DNA from: Circinaria calcarea
Lineage: Eukaryota
Length of the DNA: 46,464 bases
Assembly: GCA_051942165.1 (NCBI GenBank)
Contig: JAVECS010000016.1
Span: 1-46,464 of the forward strand
Direction of reading: 5' to 3'
Shown: piece after piece, positions 283 to 32,500 of the stretch
Layout: every line of letters starts with the position of its first letter
Position numbering within the stretch: the stretch's first letter is position 1
The notes under the pieces: model-generated
What the model was told of the DNA's origin: nothing
Databases searched by the model: none
The model's input: only the letters and a program-made list of their open reading frames with translations
Made by a program: the position numbers and the translations under genes

Positions 283-605
283 CGGGCAGGATATCACGCT
301 GGATGATCGCAAACTGAATCACGAGACACAGGGCTGTCCCGCAAATCGGATAATTCGGGGAGATTAAGTAACGTTAATAGCAGATAAGTCAGTTCCTTGC
401 TATTTCTGGACGACAAATCATGTGTAAGAAAGAGACCTTTGGAAGTATATCAATGCATTTCTCTAATGGATCAGTAGGACTCTCTAATTGCCCATACGAT
501 GTGGTATTGCGTTGAAGCAAGAGGCTGGAGGTCGCCTACGTTCCCACCTTTTCAAATCAAACGCCATAAGCTATGCGAAGTGATCAAACAGCAACCTGCA
601 GCTGA

Positions 606-2230
606 TCAAACAGGAAGTGGAAAACTCCCAGCCCACGCCGAAATTTCCTTCTTCAGCTCATTGATCTCATCGACTTCACCACTTGCAACCTTTGCCTTGA
701 AATCCTTCAGCTTATTTGCTTGCTTCGGTAACTTGGCTTGGACGTCCTGGCATATACCGATACATTGATCAATATACCTTGCAACCTTCCTGAAATCAGC
801 TTCACCCATTCCGCGACTTGACATGGCTGGTGCTCCAATGCGGATGCCGCATGGCGTTAAGGCAGACTTGTCACCTGGTATTGAGTTCTTATTGCAGGCG
901 ATATTGACTTGCTCAAGTACAGCCTCTACTCGTGCTCCATCGAGCGACTTTGGCCGCAGATCAAGAAGGACCATGTGGCTGTCGGTACCGTCTGCGACTA
1001 GCTTGTACCCTAGATGCTTGAATTCTATCTCCAAAGCTTTTGCGTTCTTGATGACTTGCTCCTGATACTGCTTGAATTCGATGGACATTGCTTGCTTCAG
1101 AGCCACGGCTAAGGCGGTTATGGTATGATTGTGAGGACCACCCTGATGGCCAGGGAATACCGAGAAGTTGATGGGCCCCTCCAAGTCATACAGGAGCTCT
1201 TTTCCGTTCTTTGCATCTGTCCTTCTTACACCTTTACGGAAGAAGATCATTGCTCCGCGAGGGCCACGTAAACTCTTGTGGGTTGTTGTAGTGACAATGT
1301 CTGCAAATTCGAAAGGCGAAGGGATCACACCAGCGGCAATTAGGCCTGAAATATGGGCCATATCTACCATCAAGTACGCCCCGCAGAGATCCGCAATCTC
1401 CCTCATACGTTTGTAGTCAATCAATCGGCAGTATGCTGAAGTGCCAGCAACAAGGACTTTTGGTCTGTACATGAGCGCATTTTTCTCCAGGGTTTCGTAA
1501 TCGATTATACCAGTCTCGAGGTTGACCCTATATGGAAACGTCTCGAAATAAGTCGAAACGGCGGAGATCCTAAGGAGGAAGACGTTAATCTAGCCCGCTT
1601 TACAAGGGCCTGCTGCCGGTGGGCTTATGCCTTCAACTTACTTCTTTTGCGGTGTTTGATATCCATGACTCAGGTGTCCCCCATGCGGGAGATCCAAGCC
1701 CATCAATCGATCATGCGGTCTCATGATTGCCTGATAGACTTGTAGATTGGCAGGACTCCCACTCAGGCATTGAACGTTAACGCCCCATTTCTCTGGATCC
1801 AATCCAAAGACCCTAAGCGCACGGGCTTGACATGTCAATTCGATCGTGTCAATATGCTCGTTACCTCCGTAGTAACGCGCACCCGGATAACCCTCGGAGT
1901 ACTTATTCGACATGGGCGAGCCGAGAGCATCGAAGACGGCGCGGGAGGTGAAGTTTTCCGAAGCAATGAGGACTACGGATTCGCGCTGGCGTTTGGTCTC
2001 GAGTTTCTTTGGATAGAGTGTTAATCAGTGCGAAGAATATACGTGAGGCGATACTGGTGAGGGAGGGAGGAAAGGGTGGTGAAATACCATGATCTCAGCG
2101 ATTTCAGGATCGCTCTCCACCAGGGACCTTTCCAGCATCTTAGGTCTTGTCAGCTAAATTTCCAATGCATGTGTCTGCCGGGCATGAAACATACGTCCCG
2201 GTGAGACTGGGGTAAGGCATAGCTGGCCAT
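606..2230 (-). CDS. SHM2: Cytosolic serine hydroxymethyltransferase (4 exons)
   Basis: ATG 2230 ([12 protein letters not shown]). Introns at about 2194-2139, 2087-2007 and 1641-1570. Motifs [31 protein letters not shown] and PLP-lysine [13 protein letters not shown]. No mitochondrial presequence. Confidence 0.97.
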
Positions 2231-2530
2231 ATTGAAGGTTGGAGTTTGGGCGCTGCGAGACAGGTTGGAGTTCAGAAATCGCCCAGGTCTATTCCGAAGT
2301 AGAGCAAAATAAGAATACGAGGGCGGAAATTCATGGGTTGCGCCGATGACGGAGAACTCATGTTTCCCTTGATCAAAAGCAGACTACCGAACTCCTACTG
2401 TAAAGGTGAAAGCATCACCATACACTAGAAAATAGAACACCCTCCCGCTCCTAGTCACACCACGTGTGAGCGCAGTTTCGCCTCTCAGTCGTTTGTGAAA
2501 AGTGCCTTGGTCAAATACGTTGTCTGTTGA

Positions 2531-2625
2531 TAGATTAGATTACGTAGATTAGAATACATAGATATTAGTTTACACAGATTAGATTACATAGATTAGATTA
2601 CATAGGTTAGGTTAGATTAGGTCAG
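2531..2625. repeat. Degenerate tandem repeat, unit about 14 nt (TAGATTAGATTACA), about 6 copies
   Basis: tagattagattacg/tagattagaataca/tagatattagtttaca/cagattagattaca/tagattagattaca/taggttaggttaga, read directly between the eIF3k stop and the SHM2 start. Confidence 0.9.
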
Positions 2626-2848
2626 GGCAAGTGACAATGATTCAATTGCGCCTTGATAGAATCATTTTCTTTCTTCATCCTTGGTAGACTTCGAAAGCCA
2701 TTATTTGGTGATCGCTCCATGCCCGATCAAGCTTCGCATGGCAGGCTAATTCTCCCGTGCTTCTTTGGAGCTGATCTCACAACGCCCTTGCAACGCCAAA
2801 GAATCCCCAGTATCAAAGCCATTCGTCCTAGCTGGCATTGACCATCTT

Positions 2849-3893
2849 TCATGCTGGTTGCTCGTAAGCGCGCTTAATCACCCTTGCAAATTCTGCAAAC
2901 GTTAGTGCGATTTGGATTATTTACGGGGTGTGGACTCACGCTCAAAACTGACATTCTCCCTTACAACGGTTCCTTTGGCTTCATTTTCCTTGTTCACCGG
3001 TATCATGACAACCCCACCACGACCGCCGGTAGTGTTATCAATCCCCCACCCACAGATCTCGATTATGAATCTCTCAAAGTCCTGACCGTGCAACTGTAGC
3101 CAACCTTCCAACAGCCCCCTCTCAAGCTCTCTGCAGCTTTGACCCACGGTAACCGCTATCCGTACTCGAATGAGTTCTTGAAACCCACTCACATCCGCCA
3201 CAAGGTCTGCGTAGAGATCATCACCATCTAGGGTATTCCAAAAGCCCTTGTAGTCTGCTTGGGAAAGTAGCGTGTTCAATGCGGTAAGCTTCTGCACCGC
3301 TTCGGATAGTGGCGCATCGCCGGCGGCAGGCAGCGACGATGAAGATGATGACGCCCGGAGAATGTGGGGCGGTAACAGGTGCAGACAGAGAGAGAAGTCT
3401 GGGGAAGGGAAAACAGTCAGGGCTTTGACAAGGATATTGGTAATCGTTTCGTCGCGGGTAAGGTGGGGATTGAATTGGTAGCTGTGCGAAAGTGGTAGAG
3501 ATCAGCTTTGGAGCGCATAGATCAAGGTGTCAAGAATGTATTAAAATGTAAGAGTAAAATCAGATAGAGCTAATAAACTTCGCTTCAGGAGCAGGAGATT
3601 GATTCAAGATCTTTCCACTCGGTCAGGTAATAGGAAACGTTACGTATTTGATCATCATTTGATGCCGAGACACTTGTCTGCCGATAAGAGGCAGGCGGTA
3701 AACTTAAGAGACGGCAAACTCACAGCTTCAATAATGCTAAGTTTGCGTAACAGTCATATGTACGGTCCTCGCACTGCGCTGTCACGTAGTCCTGGAAAAC
3801 CGCAGTGGTTTCTGGGTTATATCTATCGAGGCCATTTAGTATTGTGTCGATGTGTTCAGGCCTGTCCGGCGCGAAGTCAAATGCTACGCCCAT
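2849..3893 (-). CDS. eIF3k: Translation initiation factor eIF3 subunit K (3 exons)
   Basis: Exon 1 3893-3724: [37 protein letters not shown]...YANLALLKL. Intron 3723-3482. Exon 2 3481-2940: YQFNPHL...[17 protein letters not shown]. Intron 2939-2893. Exon 3: [17 protein letters not shown] at 2851-2849. Confidence 0.95.
3556..3662 (-). ncRNA. Intronic box C/D snoRNA with two rRNA guides
   Basis: Lies in eIF3k intron 1. Box C ATGATGA (3658-3652), box D' CTGA (3626-3623), box D CTGA (3563-3560). The D guide TATTAGCTCTA is complementary to 18S UAGAGCUAAUA. The D' guide ACGTTTCCTATTA pairs with 25S UAAUAGGGAACGU with one G-U. The rRNA segments are recalled conserved sequences. Confidence 0.85.
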
Positions 3894-4631
3894 CTCAACA
3901 GACGACGGATAACCTTCTGTGCAACATTTACGGGAGAAGAATCAAGGACCTAGGAACTTAAGAATTTCCAGCTTATAGGGCTGAGATAACCTTAGGCGAG
4001 ACGTCCTCCCTTCGAGGCTGGGGATCCAAGCAAATCGCAGTTTTTTCACACATCTTTTGCCGAGGGAAAACTACGCTTTTTTAGTACCCTAGCCTGGTCC
4101 TTTGTCCGCATCACAATGCGAGTTCGGACAGTTTGGTGCCACTACGGAAAATGCACTTGGTACGGAGGAGATAAGTCCCCCCAATTTTCCCAACTTTCGG
4201 TGGGCAGTCTTTAACTGTGGTCTCAGGGGGAATAGTCCAGTTCTCGGTTACCCTGTATACTCAACAACAGTCCTTATAAATTTCTAGAGAGAAAGTGATA
4301 GCCTGTTGAATGGGCCCTCCGAATATATTCGGACCTTTTTAAATAAGATTAAACCATGATTTGGGCTTGCTGCGGCGGTTGCAAAAAACCACGCTAACAA
4401 CTATTTCCCTCCGACCACGGTAAGCTATCATTGCTGACTCAGTCTAGGTAATGGTGCTAACTTCGATTCTAGCTAGTCTGGGGTATCTTTAGAGCACAAA
4501 AAAAGTCTAGTCGTAAGATAACCCCGAAGCAGTCGCTAAAAGGTTTTTAAAAAAAAAAGAAAAATTGGGAATAGCTCCAGAAAAGGAGTTCCTTGGCAAA
4601 AGCCCCATACACAGATCCCTTGTATGATTCT

Positions 4632-5961
4632 TTATACCAGGACCTGGACGGGGTGTGATGACAGGGCTGGAGAGTAGCACGATGTTGTGGATTGTGTCAT
4701 CATCCGGGGTGCATCGGGTGTAGAGGTCCTCTTCCTCTCTGACTTTGGTAGTCTTTTAGTGCTATCTTCTCGGGTCTCTTCTTGCTCGTAGTATCGGTGG
4801 ATGGGTTTATGTCCATCAACCGCAAGCGTTGCATCATTATCCGTAATCGGCTGCTTCACCCTTATACCACCGAGGAGCTTCCCCAAATCCTGCAGCATAC
4901 ATACGAATATCATGTGAAGCTCACAGAAGAAGTTTTCGTTATCCACGAGTTCGGCAATGCCGCTAGCCCTGACGTTCGCCGTACCACGCCGAGGATATCC
5001 ATCAGGATCCATGGTACGCCCAGTCAAGAAGGACGATATTGGAGTAATGTGGCCGGTCTGCGGAGGACTGTCTTCGGTCAGGGAAGTCCGTAAAGCGACC
5101 TGGTCAGCGGTCTCAATAATGTTTCTTGCGAGTTGCTCGAAGAGGCTCCAGATAATAGTACAGGCCTCGAAAGCACGCCTACAATCGGATCCAGCCAGTG
5201 CGAGGAGCGCATAGTAACGTTGTCGACCTCGAGCATGGGGATCCGCTAAGCGAAAGACATAAGCTATTGTATAGCCTACAGAGGGATCGCCAAAGCACAG
5301 AGGACCTGCAGTCTGCCCGCGGGGAAGTTGTTCGCCAGACAGAGTGCGAATCGTGGCTCTTCGAAGACTTGAAAAGCTGTCGGATTCGGCCGGGCTTGAA
5401 TTGGATACATATTCTAGGCTGTGAGTATGACATGAGGTGATTGACGCGGCGGAACAGAAAGATTCAGGAGTTGAAGGTAGATTCAGGCTGTCGTCTTGCA
5501 ACTCCGAGTATTCGTTGACGCAGGCATGAATAACTTCTGTGGTCCTCAAAGGAGGAGACGTATCTGCGCCTGTTGTGCTCCTCCTGAAGCTTTTCCGAGT
5601 CCCCGAAGATAAGTCTTCGGGTAAGCTAACGCGACAGCTGGCGCATCCATCATCCGCATGTCCACCGATGTTGAAGTGTGGCCCGTTTGTGTTGCTTCTT
5701 TGGTCTTTCGGGGAGAAGAGGTAGGTCGGTGTTGGCGGCAGCCCTTTAGATGGCTGCGATGAATGCAACACAGGAGGGAAACAGGCCGAACAAGGAATCG
5801 GGAGCGCCTGCGTGCACAGAATAGAGGTAGGTCCGTGGAGCTCACAGAAGTGCGCAAGGGAAAGCTAGGAGCAAGGGACCGATCAGCGAAGTCTTATACC
5901 GGGCTTGATGCACCCCACGTCAGATGACTTTGCCAGGTACCTAACATACCGTGAAATCCAT
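4632..5961 (-). CDS. LST7: Folliculin/Lst7 family protein (Rag/Gtr GAP component), 2 coding exons
   Basis: Micro-exon MDFT (5961-5950), intron 5949-5865 (GTATGT..TAG), then LSLAHFCELHGPTSILCTQ, C-x2-C, IRTLSGE, FGD...GYTIAYVFRLADPHARGRQRYYAL. These are hallmark folliculin motifs. Confidence 0.92.
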
Positions 5962-7187
5962 GCCTACACTCAACACTCGACTGATCGGGCCAAGGACATG
6001 CTTACTCTGAATGGCGTCGTGATGCAGGTTTGAATCGCAGTGGTTGGGCGCAACACAACCGAGGCCTCCTATCGTCGACCACTGCAGGGCGTGGCTTTCG
6101 AGAATGACCAGCGACAAGGACAAAGATGGGAATGTCAATTTGGAGACAGCTTCAAAGATCGGACTCTGGCCTGGCCTTCCAGCAACCACGACCTCGTTGT
6201 CGGAGCGCGCTCCAATGGTCGGTCCTTATTGGGTCACCCCACGCTTTGTCACTGTCGCAAAGCAGCTAATCGATCTCGCAGGCAACTCCGAGAAGAGAGC
6301 AATCGATCGCGCAGGTAGGAGAAAGGCAGCAGGAAACTAGCAAGAAAGTCGGAGGGTGGGATGATGGGTGGATGGACGGCTCTCTCTCGTGGTTGATTAC
6401 GGTATTTGATTTAGGAGGTGGTGCTCAGCGTTCTGATCGGTTATAGGATTTCCATGCCGGCTTACAGAGTATTGCCGTTTAGCGCTCTCTAGCCCCACTT
6501 AGCGTTCTTCACCACTGTATTTATTTACTTCACATCGTATGGCGGACAGCGTACTATAGTACGTACAGAGCACAGACTCCACCCCGGCTAAAATACACAA
6601 TCCCGTATTATGGATGATACTAGCCTGATCTCGGTTTCCCACTGAAAATGGTCCGTGCAATAGGATACCATCCTGGGGTATGTTAGCCGGCAGAATCTGT
6701 ACTCTGTACGTTTCATGTGGAAGAGCCCAAGGGTGCGTCGAACCTTGAACAACTACGTAACGATAATGACCATCTCCCGGATCTGACGATGTCGGTACAA
6801 GATTCCCTGGAGAGTTGGCCGGCTCTAGCGGATGTTTCTACTCTATCCGTGGTGAATGCCTCCCAATCACCGCGCAAGGGCCTTCACGGCCATTCTTACG
6901 AGGATAGGAGGAAGTGAACTCTGGAAACAGAGTGCACTAGATGATCAACACCATGAGACTCGAGGGTGAACATAGACATGGGTATTGACAGCTTCGAATT
7001 TCCCCTCTGCATTCTAGGGTATCTCTAAACGCTCTCATATTCATGCAATAGCCCCTTTAAGCCGTGTCTCCTTTCGTAGTACGGCCATCCGGTTGTCCCC
7101 ATAGTAAGATGGCTCTTCATTGCAGCGTATACCCGGTCTCTTCAGCATTCCGAGAGACTTGGTCCAGCCAGCTTCTGCCACGGTCAA

Positions 7188-9898
7188 TCACTCCGACTTC
7201 CCCCCTCCGGACCATCTGTCGCGCAGGTTCCTCCTTACTTTCCAGATTCTGTCTTTGCACTGCTTGCCTTCGCTGCCTTGGTCCATGGTGATCCAATCCA
7301 CGTTTCTAGCCCAGTCCTCCATGTCGAACTCTACATCCAAGTAGCCACTATCGTCCGACTCAGCTTCGTCGCCGACATCATATCGAGGCGTATTTCCGCG
7401 TGTTTTCTTCCTTTTTCGACTTGAGACGGCAGCATTGTATTCCTCCATGTACGACCATTCGGGCAGATCCAATCTCCCTCTTACCAGAACGATTCTCCCC
7501 CCCGCCTCGCAATGGCCCTCAATTACGGTCCTTGGTATTGGCGTGACTACATGTAGTGACCTGTTTTCCCGATCTATCCCACGGACAAGCATCTGACCGA
7601 GAGACCGAGTCTTCGATGGATCGAGCGGTATATTCACTCCAAGGCCATTGAAGAGGCAAGGCAGCTCCTCTTCTGTGCGCCGTATCCAAGGGTGGTCTGG
7701 TCCTGAGCTTGACAAGGCACCTCGAGCCTCCGAGAAATCTGAGTTGGAGCGAGAAAACCTTACAACGTCATGTGAGCTTTGACCCTCGCATACCTCGTTA
7801 TCTGCCGACTGAGGAGGAGTTACTCCGTCGCCATCAACAACCAGCTCCGACTCGGAGGGATCTTCATGAGAACTAGTATCTTGATAAACTTGGCTAGAAG
7901 CAATACCCTGTACTGCCAAGACCGAATCGTCTTCGATGGCGACCACTCCAAGCACAGATCCGTCAATAAGGTCGAAGAGACATTTCATGTCTAACTCGTC
8001 TCCCAGAATCATTATGCCAAATACGACCTGTTCCGTACCTGCATACTGCAGTGTCAATGACTTTTGGAAATTGATGATTGAGGGATCCCATTGAAGACCA
8101 TTCTCGTCCGGTTTGTCGAGATGAAAATACGAAAGACTTTGCATAAGCCGCAAATCTGCGGGTGTCCGGGTTGCATACTGAGAGGGCTGTGACGTCAGCT
8201 TATGGAAAGATATCTGTGCCTTTTGTGCCGCTGTTTCTAGTACGTCGTGTACCTCCTCAGGGCCTGTTCTGCTCATATACACAATGTCCGTGAGGATTGG
8301 ACTTCGGAGGAGCTCAGCGAGGATTTCTAGACCACCACCGCCAACCCAACCGGAGCAATTGACGATCAACGGACAAGACGGGTAGGAGGATATTGTTTGC
8401 TGATAATGGTTCAAAAGATCCGCTATGCAACGCAAATAATGATCCGGATCATCTCTCGGTGACACGGACCCGATATGATGAGCCTTTAGGAGCCGATCCC
8501 CAGCTCGAATATTCGGTATTGGATGGGTAAATGGAGGGGAGAAAACACATGATCTGAGGTGCAGTAACGAAATCTCACCGGGTGGTGAGAACTCCGGTTG
8601 ACCAGGATCAATGTCAAGTAAGAGGAGTCCGTCAGAGGACCCAGTAGATGCAGGGCGTGTGAGGATGGTGTTGCTCAGCAATCGGGCAAATGTGGATTTT
8701 CCTGACGCTTTAGGACCGCAGATCAAAACTCCGTGAGGCCGAAGACTCGTTCCAACCGTGAACTTAGTGGCCAGCGCTTGCCAGTCAGGGCAGGGGTTGA
8801 CGGTAGCTATGGGTCGACGGTGGGGATCGTCCAATGAAGTTTGTAGCTTTACTATCGATCAACCACTCGATCATATTTCGCCATGGGAGTTACATACAAA
8901 GCTGAAAGACCTCTTTACCATATTTGTGGACTGAGAATTTTGTGATAAAAAAGTATTTCCATAATTCCAAACCCGTCTGAAGTTGCCATGCAGTTGACCT
9001 AGGAGCCGAATTCGAGTCCTACAGGAGATTAACGTGACCTCGGCCGGTTGTGACTCTGGGCCATAAGGGTTGCGGCTATGCCGAATCGAAGGAAGGGAAT
9101 GCGTAGAGGCTGCGTATATTCGATGTGCTTGAGAAGATGGATGAAGCGTTGCCCCCTGTATGACTACAGCGCCCCTACGTACCCAAAGTTCATAAATGCC
9201 TAGCAAGGTCAAGCTCTGCAGGCACGTCAGCCGATTGCCAGCTGAGTTGCCCGAAGCTAATCCCAACGAACATCACCATTATTCAGGAGAACTGTCAGTT
9301 CCTTTTCTGTATTTGCAAGCACATTTAGCTTGGACGGTACGAAGGTGCAGAGCTGGTTGGTTGGTATGTTAGCATGGGAAAGGATTTCAGGCTCAGGGCT
9401 ACAAGATCTTAGCCGTCTGGTGGGCGATCCAATTCAAGAGTGAAAAACCTGCTGTTGGCGAGTTCGACACCGCTGCCGCTATCAATGTCACTCCCATGCA
9501 ATACAACATCTTCTTTCTCCGGTGACTCTGGTTTCCATGAATTGTCCGACGAATCACTTGACCAATCTATGTCTAATATATGGCTCTTTGAAAACGGAAG
9601 TTGTTGTTGTAAAGGGGTACTCGGACCAGAATGAATCTCGGATTCCTTGAGAGTATCGTGTGCCCCTGTCTTCTGCGCAGTACACGAACCAGCCCAAGGA
9701 GGAGCCGTTCGTTTCTTATTTTCGACAGAATCGTTTATGTGCTTGGGTGGATTTTGCAAGGCTCGTCGTGCGGCGAAGGCGCTCACAGGCATATCTACAG
9801 CACTTTCGTAAGCTAACTGGTCCTCGTATATATCTGCACTTAGCGTGAGGCGTACCATGACTTGGCACGGTAGCCTTTGTTCTCTTTCTTTTAGGCAT
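7188..9898 (-). CDS. GRC3: Polynucleotide 5'-hydroxyl kinase Grc3/Nol9 (about 5 exons)
   Basis: ATG 9898 MPKRKRTK, then spliced exons DMPVSAFAARR, QLCTFVPSKLN, SLTLLGIYELWVRRG. Main exon has the P-loop ICGPKASGKSTF, DIDPGQPEFSPPG and IVNCSGWV. Intron 2 boundaries are ambiguous. Confidence 0.93.
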
Positions 9899-29509: not shown

Positions 29510-32500
29510 TCAATCTTTAATCATCTCAATCTTGGCGTGCAACTCGGTATCCAGGAAGTTATAATAAGGATCTACCCTGCAAAACGGATGCCTCACCAGA
29601 AGCGTCTCCGCCGTCGGCCTCTCACTCGGGTCAATGGTGAAGCAATCCAACATGAAGGCGACGGCCTCGGCCGAAATACTGCTGCTCACGTCGTCGGGAA
29701 TGGGCGGTGCTTGATTAAGACTGCCCAGTTTGTAGATGGCCCCAATCGGCTCTTCCTTACTCCAGGGCCGGCGACCGGCAAACATTTCGAGGACAACGCA
29801 GCCGAGCGACCAGATGTCCACCTTGGCGCTGTAGCCCTGGCCTTGCGACCGGATGACTTCGGGCGCCATCCAGAAGACGGAACCTTGCATGCTGTAGGTG
29901 ACGTCATTGCCATAGATGTTGTCACTCCGCTTGGAGATGCCGAAGTCGGAGATTTTGCAGGTGCCATCCAAATCGAGGAGGATGTTGTCGGCTTTGAGGT
30001 CCCGGTGCAGGATACCTTCGGTGTGCAGGTAGGCAAGCCCGGCAAGCGTTTGCCGAGTAAGAGAGCTGACGACGCTCTCTTCGAACTTGCCGTGTTTGCG
30101 CAGGCAGCTACCGACGCTGCCGCCGGAGATGTACTCGAGGAAGATGGAAATGGAGTATTCTTTGCGTTCGCAGCCAAGATACTGGACAATGTTGGGGTGT
30201 TCCAGATGCTGCATCGTGTCGATTTCTTGGTCGAGGGCGCCGACGAGTTCTTTGATTTTGTCCTTGTCCTGGCCGGCAACTTTGGGGTTGACCTCGACTT
30301 GCTTGATTGCGAGAAACTCACCGTTGGTTGCATTGATACCCAGGTACACGCGTCCATATGTACCTTTGCCTATCATCTGACCTCGGAGGATCCTGAAGGT
30401 ATCTCGACGCTTCGGCTTCGATGGCTGTTCCCGCTGGACAGCATCGATCAGGCTCATTCGACTGCCTCGGCCAGGATTTATTTGTACAATGTTGGCACCA
30501 AACATCTTGGTGCTTTTGCGACGCACAATGTCACCTCCTGATTTGCTGCCTGTAGATGCCTTGGGATTACGCCGGCGCGAATGATTGGCACCCCTTGCTA
30601 CTTCACGTATAGACTTCATGCGGCCCAGGCCTCCAGACCTCCGGATGTTCCGTTGAGCAACAGATTGTGCAACTGACATGTTGGTTGCGATACTCTTGAG
30701 TGTCGAATCCTGAGAGCCTAAAGTATCTGGTTCTTCCGCGATAGCCTCCTCGGCTATGGACATCGGACGACCATAATCATGATACGATGACTTTGCTTGT
30801 TTCTGAGCTTGCATCGACACAGCGGTATCCATTGGGTTCTGGTCAACACCAGACATTGGGGATGCAGGGGGCGAGCCTGCCTGATCTTCCAGGACGGGCT
30901 GATCAAGGTCGATATTAGGGAAGTACGCATCAAGATTATCGAGCAAAGCCTCCATTGGCGGACGATTAGCCCAGACGTCGTCTCGGGCAAACGAATCCCT
31001 CCGCCCCAGTCCTCCCGATTTGGCGTCTGGGGATTGTGCAGAAGCGACAGTCGAAGTAGCCGAATCCGGAATGGGCCGCTCGGATTTGGAAAGCATGAGA
31101 TGGCCCTGTTCATCGAGGTCTGGCGTGTCGGACGATTGGGCAGTGGAGATACTCGTCGATGTCTCTGGCGTAGCAGCCCAGGTGACAGACCTGCCCTTGG
31201 CCCGACGCGCATTTGTATCAACGTTGAGAGTCGGTCTCTGCTGGGGATTAGATACAGTGGTCTTTGCAAGAGGTTTGGCAAACAAGCCATCGTCCGAGTC
31301 ATCATCGGATTCCTGCGTCAACACCGGCGTCCTTGCAAAAGTAACCTCGCTTTCTTTGAACGTGAAAGCAGGCCCGTAGGACCGCCGAGACATGAGCGAA
31401 GGTTTCCGGCCGGGTGGAGCTTCCGAACTTGGACTTATCGCTGGAGAGGGACCACGTTTGGGCATCTCAAAAGATGGCTTCTTGGGCATTTGGAGCGACA
31501 GAGAAGGTCTTCGTGGTTCCTGGACTTGCTCTGGGCCTTCTTCATAGTCAGGTATTTTAAAGACCATCTTGTTTTTCCCGTTGGTGAAACCAGGACTTCG
31601 GGGAGACCCACCTGGACTACTTCTCCTGGAACCGGTGGGACCAAAATCCACAGACTGTAGGGCGCGAGGTGGTCTGCCGTTACTCCCATCAGACCCTCCA
31701 GAGCGGGGAGAGACAATGCTGGAGAAGTTGCTGGAGCCTGAATCTGGTTTGCTAGGTGCTCCGATGGCCGTGGTCACGATTCCGGCGCCTATCAACGCAG
31801 AGCTAATTCCAGCAGCCACTGTTGGCGTGGGTATCACTGCTTTACGTCTTCCTCTTTCAGATGTCTCCTCAGGTATGGGTTCGCCAAGCGAACGGCGATC
31901 GCCGCTATCATTCTGACCTAACATCGGTTTTCTAACCCTCTCACCTGGCTTTTTGCTTAACGAGTTCGCTCTGGTTAATGTGCTCGATTCGGTAGGGGCA
32001 GGCGGCGGCTTTCTGGAGGGTATGAGAGTATCTGGCTTCTTGGGAGGGATCATAGTCGCAAACTTCTTGTCCTCATAAGGGGAGTCCCTCCGAGCATCAA
32101 AATCAATGACGCCGTCCCTCTTGATGCCCCAGGTTCCTGAGTCCGTCGGGGATTCTTTTCTGAGCTTTGTTTGTCTTGCCTCAAGATATGCTTTTTGTTT
32201 CTTCATGACCTCCCGACGATACACTTCAACGGCTGCGTCAAGTGATGCTTCTCGATCGGCTTCTGATATAGTTTCACTGAGCTGACTAGCATCGACTATT
32301 CTCAAACGCTCTTTTATCGCTTCCACCGTAGGACTACTGGTGCCCATATGCGGACTTCCGTTCGCAGACACACTTGACGGGAAAATTCCGTCAATTGCAG
32401 GACTGATACTGGCCTTCAGTGGTCCTTGCCGTGCGCTCATCGGGGGAGAATTTGAGCGGTGTGGACCGTGCGAAGTTACTCGTGGAAATCTATCTTCACT

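Follow-up and report, generated by a model that had tools for sequence, protein, structure and literature searches.

A probable intron-encoded box C/D snoRNA in the eIF3k gene of Circinaria calcarea carries the two rRNA guides of plant snoR18

Results

The eIF3k gene and its first intron

The stretch of DNA analyzed here, referred to as the window, comprises the 46,464 nucleotides (nt) of contig JAVECS010000016.1 from Circinaria calcarea (Eukaryota; assembly GCA_051942165.1, positions 1 to 46,464 of the forward strand), and our subject is a probable box C/D small nucleolar RNA (snoRNA) in the first intron of the gene encoding subunit k of translation initiation factor eIF3 (eIF3k). The host gene lies on the minus strand in three exons, which when joined give an open frame of 251 amino acids followed by a stop codon (Table 1). 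Exon 2 matches the Pfam family PF10075 (CSN8_PSD8_EIF3K) with an E value of 6.7e-31, and all five PDB matches of the host protein are eIF3 subunit K, one of them under the older name subunit 11; a translation-factor host of this kind had been proposed in an earlier note on this DNA, as had an intron of 242 nt. That intron is found in the sequence with GT..AG borders, which are supported because a metatranscriptome contig of a relative, 90-95% similar, joins 3481 exactly to 3724 and skips the 242 nt. The RNA run behind this contig, the one run found, shows an overlap with the window of 0.06 of the sampled words. A candidate branch site, CTGAT, is read from the sequence only at 3505-3501 (-).

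The element within intron 1 combines the sequence motifs by which box C/D snoRNAs are recognized. An AUGAUGA box near the 5' end corresponds to the RUGAUGA consensus of box C, and a CUGA D box stands near the 3' end; internal D' and C' boxes (CUGA and UGAAGC) enclose a spacer that is predicted to fold into a hairpin. The C, D' and D boxes and the antisense tracts ahead of the two D boxes, which the earlier note had pointed out, are all present in the sequence on the minus strand, and the range of 3556-3662 that it gave for the snoRNA agrees with the matches of an Rfam family and of a sequence model of our own (model R1, described below).

Table 1. Features of the eIF3k gene and of the snoRNA in its first intron (window coordinates)
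Feature	Position	Strand	Evidence and remarks
eIF3k exon 1	3893-3724	-	ATG at 3893; tblastn
eIF3k intron 1	3723-3482	-	242 nt, GTGAGT...CAG; sequence and spliced contig of a relative
Box C/D snoRNA (probable), intron-encoded, about 100-107 nt	3662-3556	-	Rfam match 3556-3661; model R1 match 3558-3661
C box AUGAUGA	3658-3652	-	Sequence; family conservation
D' guide ACGUUUCCUAUUA	3640-3628	-	Antisense to LSU rRNA UAAUAGGGAACGU; fifth position upstream of D' is 3631
Spacer, one C	3627	-	Between D' guide and D' box
D' box CUGA	3626-3623	-	Sequence
Hairpin-forming D'-C' spacer, 35 nt	3622-3588	-	RNAfold, -6.3 kcal/mol; loop carries UGAAUC
C' box variant UGAAGC	3587-3582	-	Sequence
D guide UAUUAGCUCUA	3575-3565	-	Antisense to 18S UAGAGCUAAUA; fifth position upstream of D is 3568
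Spacer, one U	3564	-	Between D guide and D box
D box CUGA	3563-3560	-	Sequence
eIF3k exon 2	3481-2940	-	Pfam and PDB matches
eIF3k intron 2	2939-2893	-	47 nt; sequence
eIF3k exon 3	2892-2849	-	Includes stop; sequence

The snoRNA is conserved in orthologous eIF3k introns

A metagenome scan was carried out using the two guide cores joined by a gap as the pattern; it returned at least 111 stretches, 110 of which re-matched the pattern. Four of these are without a C box or a nearby eIF3k (L059, L065, L082 and L101) and two are plant-type (L089 and L092), and the remaining 104 are designated fungal-type, a label based on their eIF3k host, on introns that are short and of the GT..AG type, and on parallels in the literature; all family counts given for this collection (104, 102, 98, 81, 80 and 71) are counts among the matches listed and not totals. 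Exon 1 of eIF3k is found directly upstream on the same strand, at 53-93% identity by tblastn, in 102 of the 104 fungal-type loci, which bears out the suggestion that this RNA has been kept in filamentous fungi, and exon 2 follows downstream on the same strand in 98; every locus without an exon match lies on a contig that ends within 21-114 nt. Both borders could be placed for 71 distinct orthologous introns, all of which are GT..AG introns of 185-406 nt at the identical position in the coding sequence. The distance from the end of the D box to the 3' splice site in these introns has a median of 78 nt (range 65-141), and the intron of the window has this same spacing of 78 nt.

The C and D boxes are both conserved among 81 unique members. 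Of the columns that the search pattern left free, UGAUGA of the C box is invariant or conserved to at least 90%, and the same holds for ACGUUU in the D' guide, the C of the spacer and the D' box. The UG of the C' box is invariant and the G at its fifth position at least 90% conserved, the commonest form being UGAAGU/UGAAGC, and in the intron flanks outside the boxes and guides conservation drops to background. The D' box reads CUGA in 54 of 80 unique metagenome copies, CCGA in 24 and otherwise in two, and it always begins one nucleotide after CCUAUUA-N (80 of 80 unique fungal-type copies). A lack of conservation of boxes and guides in orthologous introns had been set beforehand as a possible refutation; what was found is conservation, in 71 introns and 81 snoRNAs. 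A sequence model built from 80 metagenome copies with the window excluded (model R1) finds a single match in the 46-kb window, at 3558-3661, with 63.9 bits and an E value of 5.2e-19.

Applied to a MAFFT alignment, RNAalifold gave no pairs because the variable hairpin is misaligned, and the spacers were then folded one by one. A hairpin is predicted between D' and C' in 78 of 80 members, with stems of very different sequence. The 5' and 3' flanks of family members covary, pairing better with their own partner than with the flanks of other members (-5.07 versus -2.61 kcal/mol; Mann-Whitney p 9e-10).

Predicted targets in 18S and large subunit rRNA

To place the guides on ribosomal RNA (rRNA), we used ribosomal DNA (rDNA) retrieved by a scan of prokaryote assemblies for a large subunit (LSU) rRNA motif, which yielded 32 loci, all eukaryotic rDNA contaminants. 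In one of these, L013, Rfam places the small subunit (SSU) rRNA at 1358-3157 and the LSU rRNA at 3647-7443, and both guides were scanned along SSU, 5.8S and LSU rRNA with G.U pairs allowed. The best site of the D guide is in the SSU rRNA, with 11 Watson-Crick base pairs (bp) and A162, the second A of UAGAGCUAAUA, as the target; the next-best site has 10 bp, four of them G.U. The D' guide pairs best with the LSU rRNA, in 13 bp with one G.U, with a U in CUAAUAGGGAACGU as the target, and reaches 10 bp with five G.U at its next-best site and 9 bp with two G.U at its best SSU site (SSU position 863). In box C/D snoRNAs the target is the nucleotide at the fifth pair upstream of the D or D' box, and on L013 each guide offers at least 10 bp of antisense next to its box with a target at this pair. 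Both best sites agree with those predicted in the earlier note, which had aimed the D guide at the second A of the 18S tract and the D' guide at a U of the 25S rRNA 3' of the A-loop. We take the site of the D guide to be human Am166 and that of the D' guide to be yeast U2935, the latter on a yeast numbering that is here offset by one from that of Arabidopsis.

The D' target tract, UAAUAGGGAACGU, lies directly 3' of the A-loop UUGUUC. In rDNA fragments the tract adjoins the A-loop as UUGUUCACCCACUAAUAGGG, within the LSU context UUGUUCACCNNCUAAUAGGGAACGUGAGCUGGG, the LSU target having itself been part of the pattern that retrieved those fragments. The 18S 11-mer is exact in L013 and L014 (one contig), L015 and L025; the 18S sequence at L032 5380-5440 (-) reads UCUGGAGCUAAUAC versus UCUAGAGCUAAUAC. 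At position 9 of the D' guide (3634, minus strand) the window carries a U where a C would pair perfectly with the GGG of the LSU rRNA, so that a G.U wobble forms; conservation of this U among the 81 members is at least 90%, and copies with the perfect C were seen only in L050 and L084 among the matches listed. The rDNA unit of L013 sits inside a prokaryote metagenome-assembled genome contig, and its LSU gene carries a group I intron at 5984-6326 (Rfam RF00028, 109.5 bits).

At the apex of the D'-C' hairpin, 60 of the 81 unique members show UGAA[UC]C in the loop; in the window the motif is located at about 3605-3600 (-). An accessory pairing of the UGAAUC loop with rRNA was considered and rejected, as the 60 nt on either side of each target in L013 contain no 6-nt complement; one 5-mer complement lies 18 nt 5' of the LSU site. 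The C' box of the plant model, AUGAUGG, sits in the equivalent loop, and the motif seen here may be a remnant or an additional C'-like element.

Chance expectation for this arrangement is low. Among the 392 CTGA sites on both strands of the window, three follow an 11-mer complementary to real eukaryotic rRNA, and of these three the site at 3563 alone is preceded by a C box at a distance of 45-140 nt. In 100 shuffled windows, the mean is 1.09 rRNA-complementary 11-mers and 0.02 with a C box as well, a test that counts one guide and the C box and leaves out the second guide and the conservation. CTGA sites at 30451 and 28003 (-) are preceded by 11-mers complementary to L013, have no upstream C box and are at chance level.

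Relation to plant snoR18

The best Rfam family for the window is RF00359 (snoZ102_R77, clan CL00060), which aligns over its full length, both guides included, with 22 bits and an E value of 2.2. The D guide and D box, UAUUAGCUCUAUCUGA, are identical to the RF00359 consensus. Plant snoR18, which is the same RNA as SnoR77.1 and rice Z102, carries both of these guides in matching order (D' to the LSU rRNA 3' of the A-loop, D to 18S UAGAGCUAAUA), and judged by its sequence the window snoRNA is the fungal counterpart of this plant RNA. Arabidopsis RiboMeth-seq data assign 18S-A162 and 25S-A2935 to SnoR18; SnoR77.1, AtsnoR18, SnoR18a and SnoR18b are given as guides for A2935, which has a wild-type MethScore of about 0.96-0.97 (PMC8053127, available in part).

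The two groups differ in the D' half of the molecule. The plant D' box, UUGA, stands two nucleotides after CCUAUUG/A, whereas the fungal-type D' box stands one nucleotide after, and with this offset of one nucleotide the fifth pair involves an A in plants and, in fungi, the U that follows it. The D' guide of the window thus pairs with the tract that contains 25S A2935, with its fifth pair falling on the next nucleotide, a U. The suggestion of a similar 18S plus LSU double-guide layout in plant snoR18 is therefore upheld for the layout, by the RiboMeth-seq assignments and the RF00359 alignment, and not for the LSU nucleotide, the plant A adjoining the fungal U on its 5' side. Where the plant guide has CCC the fungal guide has UCC, with the G.U wobble, and the plant pairing ends earlier. 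Plant copies are about 80 nt long with a short internal stem, and occur in tandem (L089), outside eIF3k, and in snoRNA clusters (PMC5122169, available in part). In L089, the tandem Z102/R77 snoRNAs are found at 37-118 and 293-375 (+), with 73.5 and 84.2 bits, a UUGA D' box and no nearby eIF3k; L092 carries the same snoRNA and flanks.

Neurospora CD32, human U44 and other fungal catalogues

A fungal snoRNA with the same D guide has been described in Neurospora crassa. Nc CD32 is intronic and was cloned as complementary DNA; the target assigned to its D guide is 18S-Am161, for which snoR18 and human U44 are named as homologs, and Table 1 of this source, available to us in part, gives no homolog of this guide for Saccharomyces cerevisiae or Schizosaccharomyces pombe (PMC2780460). 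These entries are in line with two statements of the earlier note, that the 18S site is unmodified in S. cerevisiae and that it is equivalent to the site of SNORD44 (U44), the human homolog listed for it. SNORD44 has a different host gene. Compared by eye with the available part of Additional file 1 of PMC2780460, the D guide and D box of Nc CD32, UUAUUAGCUCUAUCUGA, are identical to those of the window, and the two RNAs agree in UAUUA at the end of the D' guide and in having CUGA as D' box. Nc CD32 is 82 nt long and its D' guide, CAGCAUGUAUUAU, is assigned to 18S-Um167, whereas the D' guide of the window is directed to the LSU rRNA and does not fit 18S-Um167.

The main text of "The fungal snoRNAome" (2018), in the part available, places CD_32 only in Sordariales, and the family described here may appear in its supplements under another name (PMC5824354). 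The snoRNA table of Aspergillus fumigatus lists no guide for this 18S site, and two candidate fungal relatives were rejected: Afu_300, at 17.5 bits, and AM921920/CD_35 (Afu-191), which targets 5.8S and U2. A literature search for a snoRNA in an eIF3k intron returned no paper on this subject as judged by title or the start of the abstract, and a Trichophyton rubrum paper does not mention U44, snoR18, CD32 or eIF3. The Rfam scan of the window gives no SNORD44 row, which says little because overlapping matches of a clan are collapsed to the best one. We know of no LSU guide in human U44.

Discussion

Evidence for a functional snoRNA and the alternatives

We conclude that the window encodes a real, functional, intron-encoded box C/D snoRNA, with a probability of roughly 0.88. 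What is observed directly is that the boxes are present, that the guides complement real rRNA, that the element is conserved across orthologous introns and that the intron has the stated borders. Several points weigh on the other side. Complementarity was scored on L013 and similar eukaryotic rDNA and not on the rRNA of C. calcarea, the D duplex comes to 11 bp only, and the 18S 11-mer has one substitution in L032 (UGGAGC versus UAGAGC), so that the 18S target tract is not invariant across eukaryotes. The RF00359 score of 22 bits is below the gathering score of 40, and at gathering thresholds the whole window matches zero Rfam families. Methylation sites in Neurospora are predictions, with only the targets of CD11 and CD29 mapped according to the available part of PMC2780460; a literature search for a ribose-methylation map of a filamentous fungus found none; and the LSU U predicted here differs from the experimentally mapped plant A. 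The one RNA run found yields a spliced messenger RNA contig of a relative that leaves intron 1 uncovered and is uninformative on the excised intron. Finally, the terminal stem, which in box C/D snoRNAs brings the C and D boxes together, is very weak in the window copy, with about three A-U pairs and a duplexfold energy of 0.8 kcal/mol versus a family mean of -5.07, and the whole snoRNA folds no better than shuffled sequences (z +1.2). A weak terminal stem and shuffle-like folding are both common among C/D snoRNAs.

The alternatives concern what the D' half does, whether this particular copy is active and whether the element is a snoRNA at all. A real snoRNA might use its D' guide to methylate the neighboring A, as in plants, or simply to pair with pre-rRNA in the vicinity of the A-loop, helping it fold or adding an accessory duplex and leaving it unmodified. 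We consider this unlikely, although it draws on the fact that the only mapped site of this guide family is an A (Arabidopsis A2935), with non-canonical targeting of adjacent nucleotides flagged for several other Arabidopsis guides in the available part of Table 1 of PMC8053127, and on a Neurospora list that, in the part available, has no 26S site at the equivalent position (PMC2780460). The variant C' box UGAAGC and the CCGA form of the D' box in 24 of 80 members also make for an imperfect internal motif pair. The spacing of guide and D' box is nevertheless one nucleotide in 80 of 80 unique fungal-type copies versus two nucleotides in both plant-type copies, a constancy that speaks for selection on one particular target. 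Conservation also reaches at least 90% in the D' box and in those D' guide bases that the search pattern left free, and the fifth-nucleotide rule is established for the class.

The near absence of a terminal stem in the window, at 0.8 kcal/mol, and an RNA record that consists of a spliced contig with no intron cover could also be expected of a decayed or silent copy, belonging to a family that is real elsewhere and here yields no RNA or an unstable one. This is very unlikely, as all four boxes and both guides are intact and score 63.9 bits against model R1, the D box lies at the family's median distance from the 3' splice site, and several of the other members listed likewise have weakly pairing flanks. 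The constant placement in the same intron of the same gene (102 of 104 loci) might instead suggest that the intron holds a conserved control element for the splicing or expression of eIF3k, whose likeness to a snoRNA is accidental. Conservation, however, coincides precisely with the four boxes (C, D', C' and D) and the two rRNA-antisense tracts, the rest of the intron being at background; plant-type copies carry the same two guides outside eIF3k, as in the tandem pair of L089, which has no eIF3k match; and even one guide with a C box is expected by chance only 0.02 times per window. We regard such a regulatory element as highly improbable.

Proposed mode of action

A functional snoRNA at this locus would, by analogy with the general pathway for intronic snoRNAs, be freed from eIF3k intron 1 after splicing and cut back to its C/D core. 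RNAs of this class are stable, about 70-120 nt long and bound by fibrillarin, Nop56, Nop58 and Snu13. The RNA would then form a particle with the box C/D proteins, among them fibrillarin/Nop1, the methyltransferase, and its two guides would pair with pre-rRNA. The D guide is predicted to put the second A of 18S UAGAGCUAAUA (A161 in N. crassa, A162 in Arabidopsis and A166 in human) at the fifth pair from box D, and the D' guide to put the U of LSU CUAAUAGGG, 14 nt 3' of the A-loop G and number 2936 in Arabidopsis, at the fifth pair from D'. Both target nucleotides would receive a 2'-O-methyl group. We infer that the RNA accumulates, and that both sites are methylated, in C. calcarea.

Evolutionary reading and significance

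The comparison with plants and Neurospora permits a tentative scenario, to which we give somewhat less than even odds, in which an ancient double-guide snoRNA predates the split of plants and fungi, became fixed in intron 1 of eIF3k in filamentous fungi and underwent three lineage-specific changes: a slide of the D' box, a re-aiming in Sordariales and a loss in yeasts. If so, the fungal D' box slid by one nucleotide and fungi methylate the U that adjoins the plant A, which would add an undescribed Um to the dense cluster of modifications around the A-loop. The D' element of Sordariales would likewise have been re-aimed from the LSU rRNA to 18S-U167. The hexamer CUAAUA occurs in both D' targets and has the target U in the same position each time (the Neurospora guide being compared by eye, from a source available in part), and this common hexamer may have made for an easy target switch. 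According to the available part of PMC3826745, eIF3 of S. cerevisiae and S. pombe is without subunit k. It is plausible that budding and fission yeast lost the snoRNA together with its host gene, and the presence of the guide would then be linked to that of the gene, as both yeasts are without eIF3k and without the guide.

The same source describes eIF3k as non-essential and deleted in Neurospora (PMC3826745, available in part). If the snoRNA sits in eIF3k of Neurospora or Magnaporthe, deletion of the whole gene would also remove a conserved rRNA-modification guide, a caution for the genetics of this subunit. Studies of eIF3k have reportedly been made in Magnaporthe as well (PMC8558559). Catalogues for filamentous fungi are thin, and Rfam 15 is without a fungal model that reaches threshold here; their repertoire would gain one guide RNA and two predicted rRNA methylations, one of them beside the A-loop. 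The family would also provide an example of a double-guide snoRNA that keeps one guide while the other shifts its register by one nucleotide (plants versus fungi) or switches its target (Sordariales). The find is solid and fairly ordinary, this type of guide RNA being already known from plants.

Neighboring features

Two further features flank eIF3k in the window. Upstream of its ATG, at 4127-4214 (+), Rfam reports a weak hit for wcaG, a cyanobacterial RNA, with 28.9 bits and E 0.0044 against a gathering score of 42; this hit is below threshold, in the wrong kingdom and probably due to chance. Downstream of eIF3k, at 1638-2153 (-), the open frames look like a serine hydroxymethyltransferase gene with a short intron, a name given by reading the translation.

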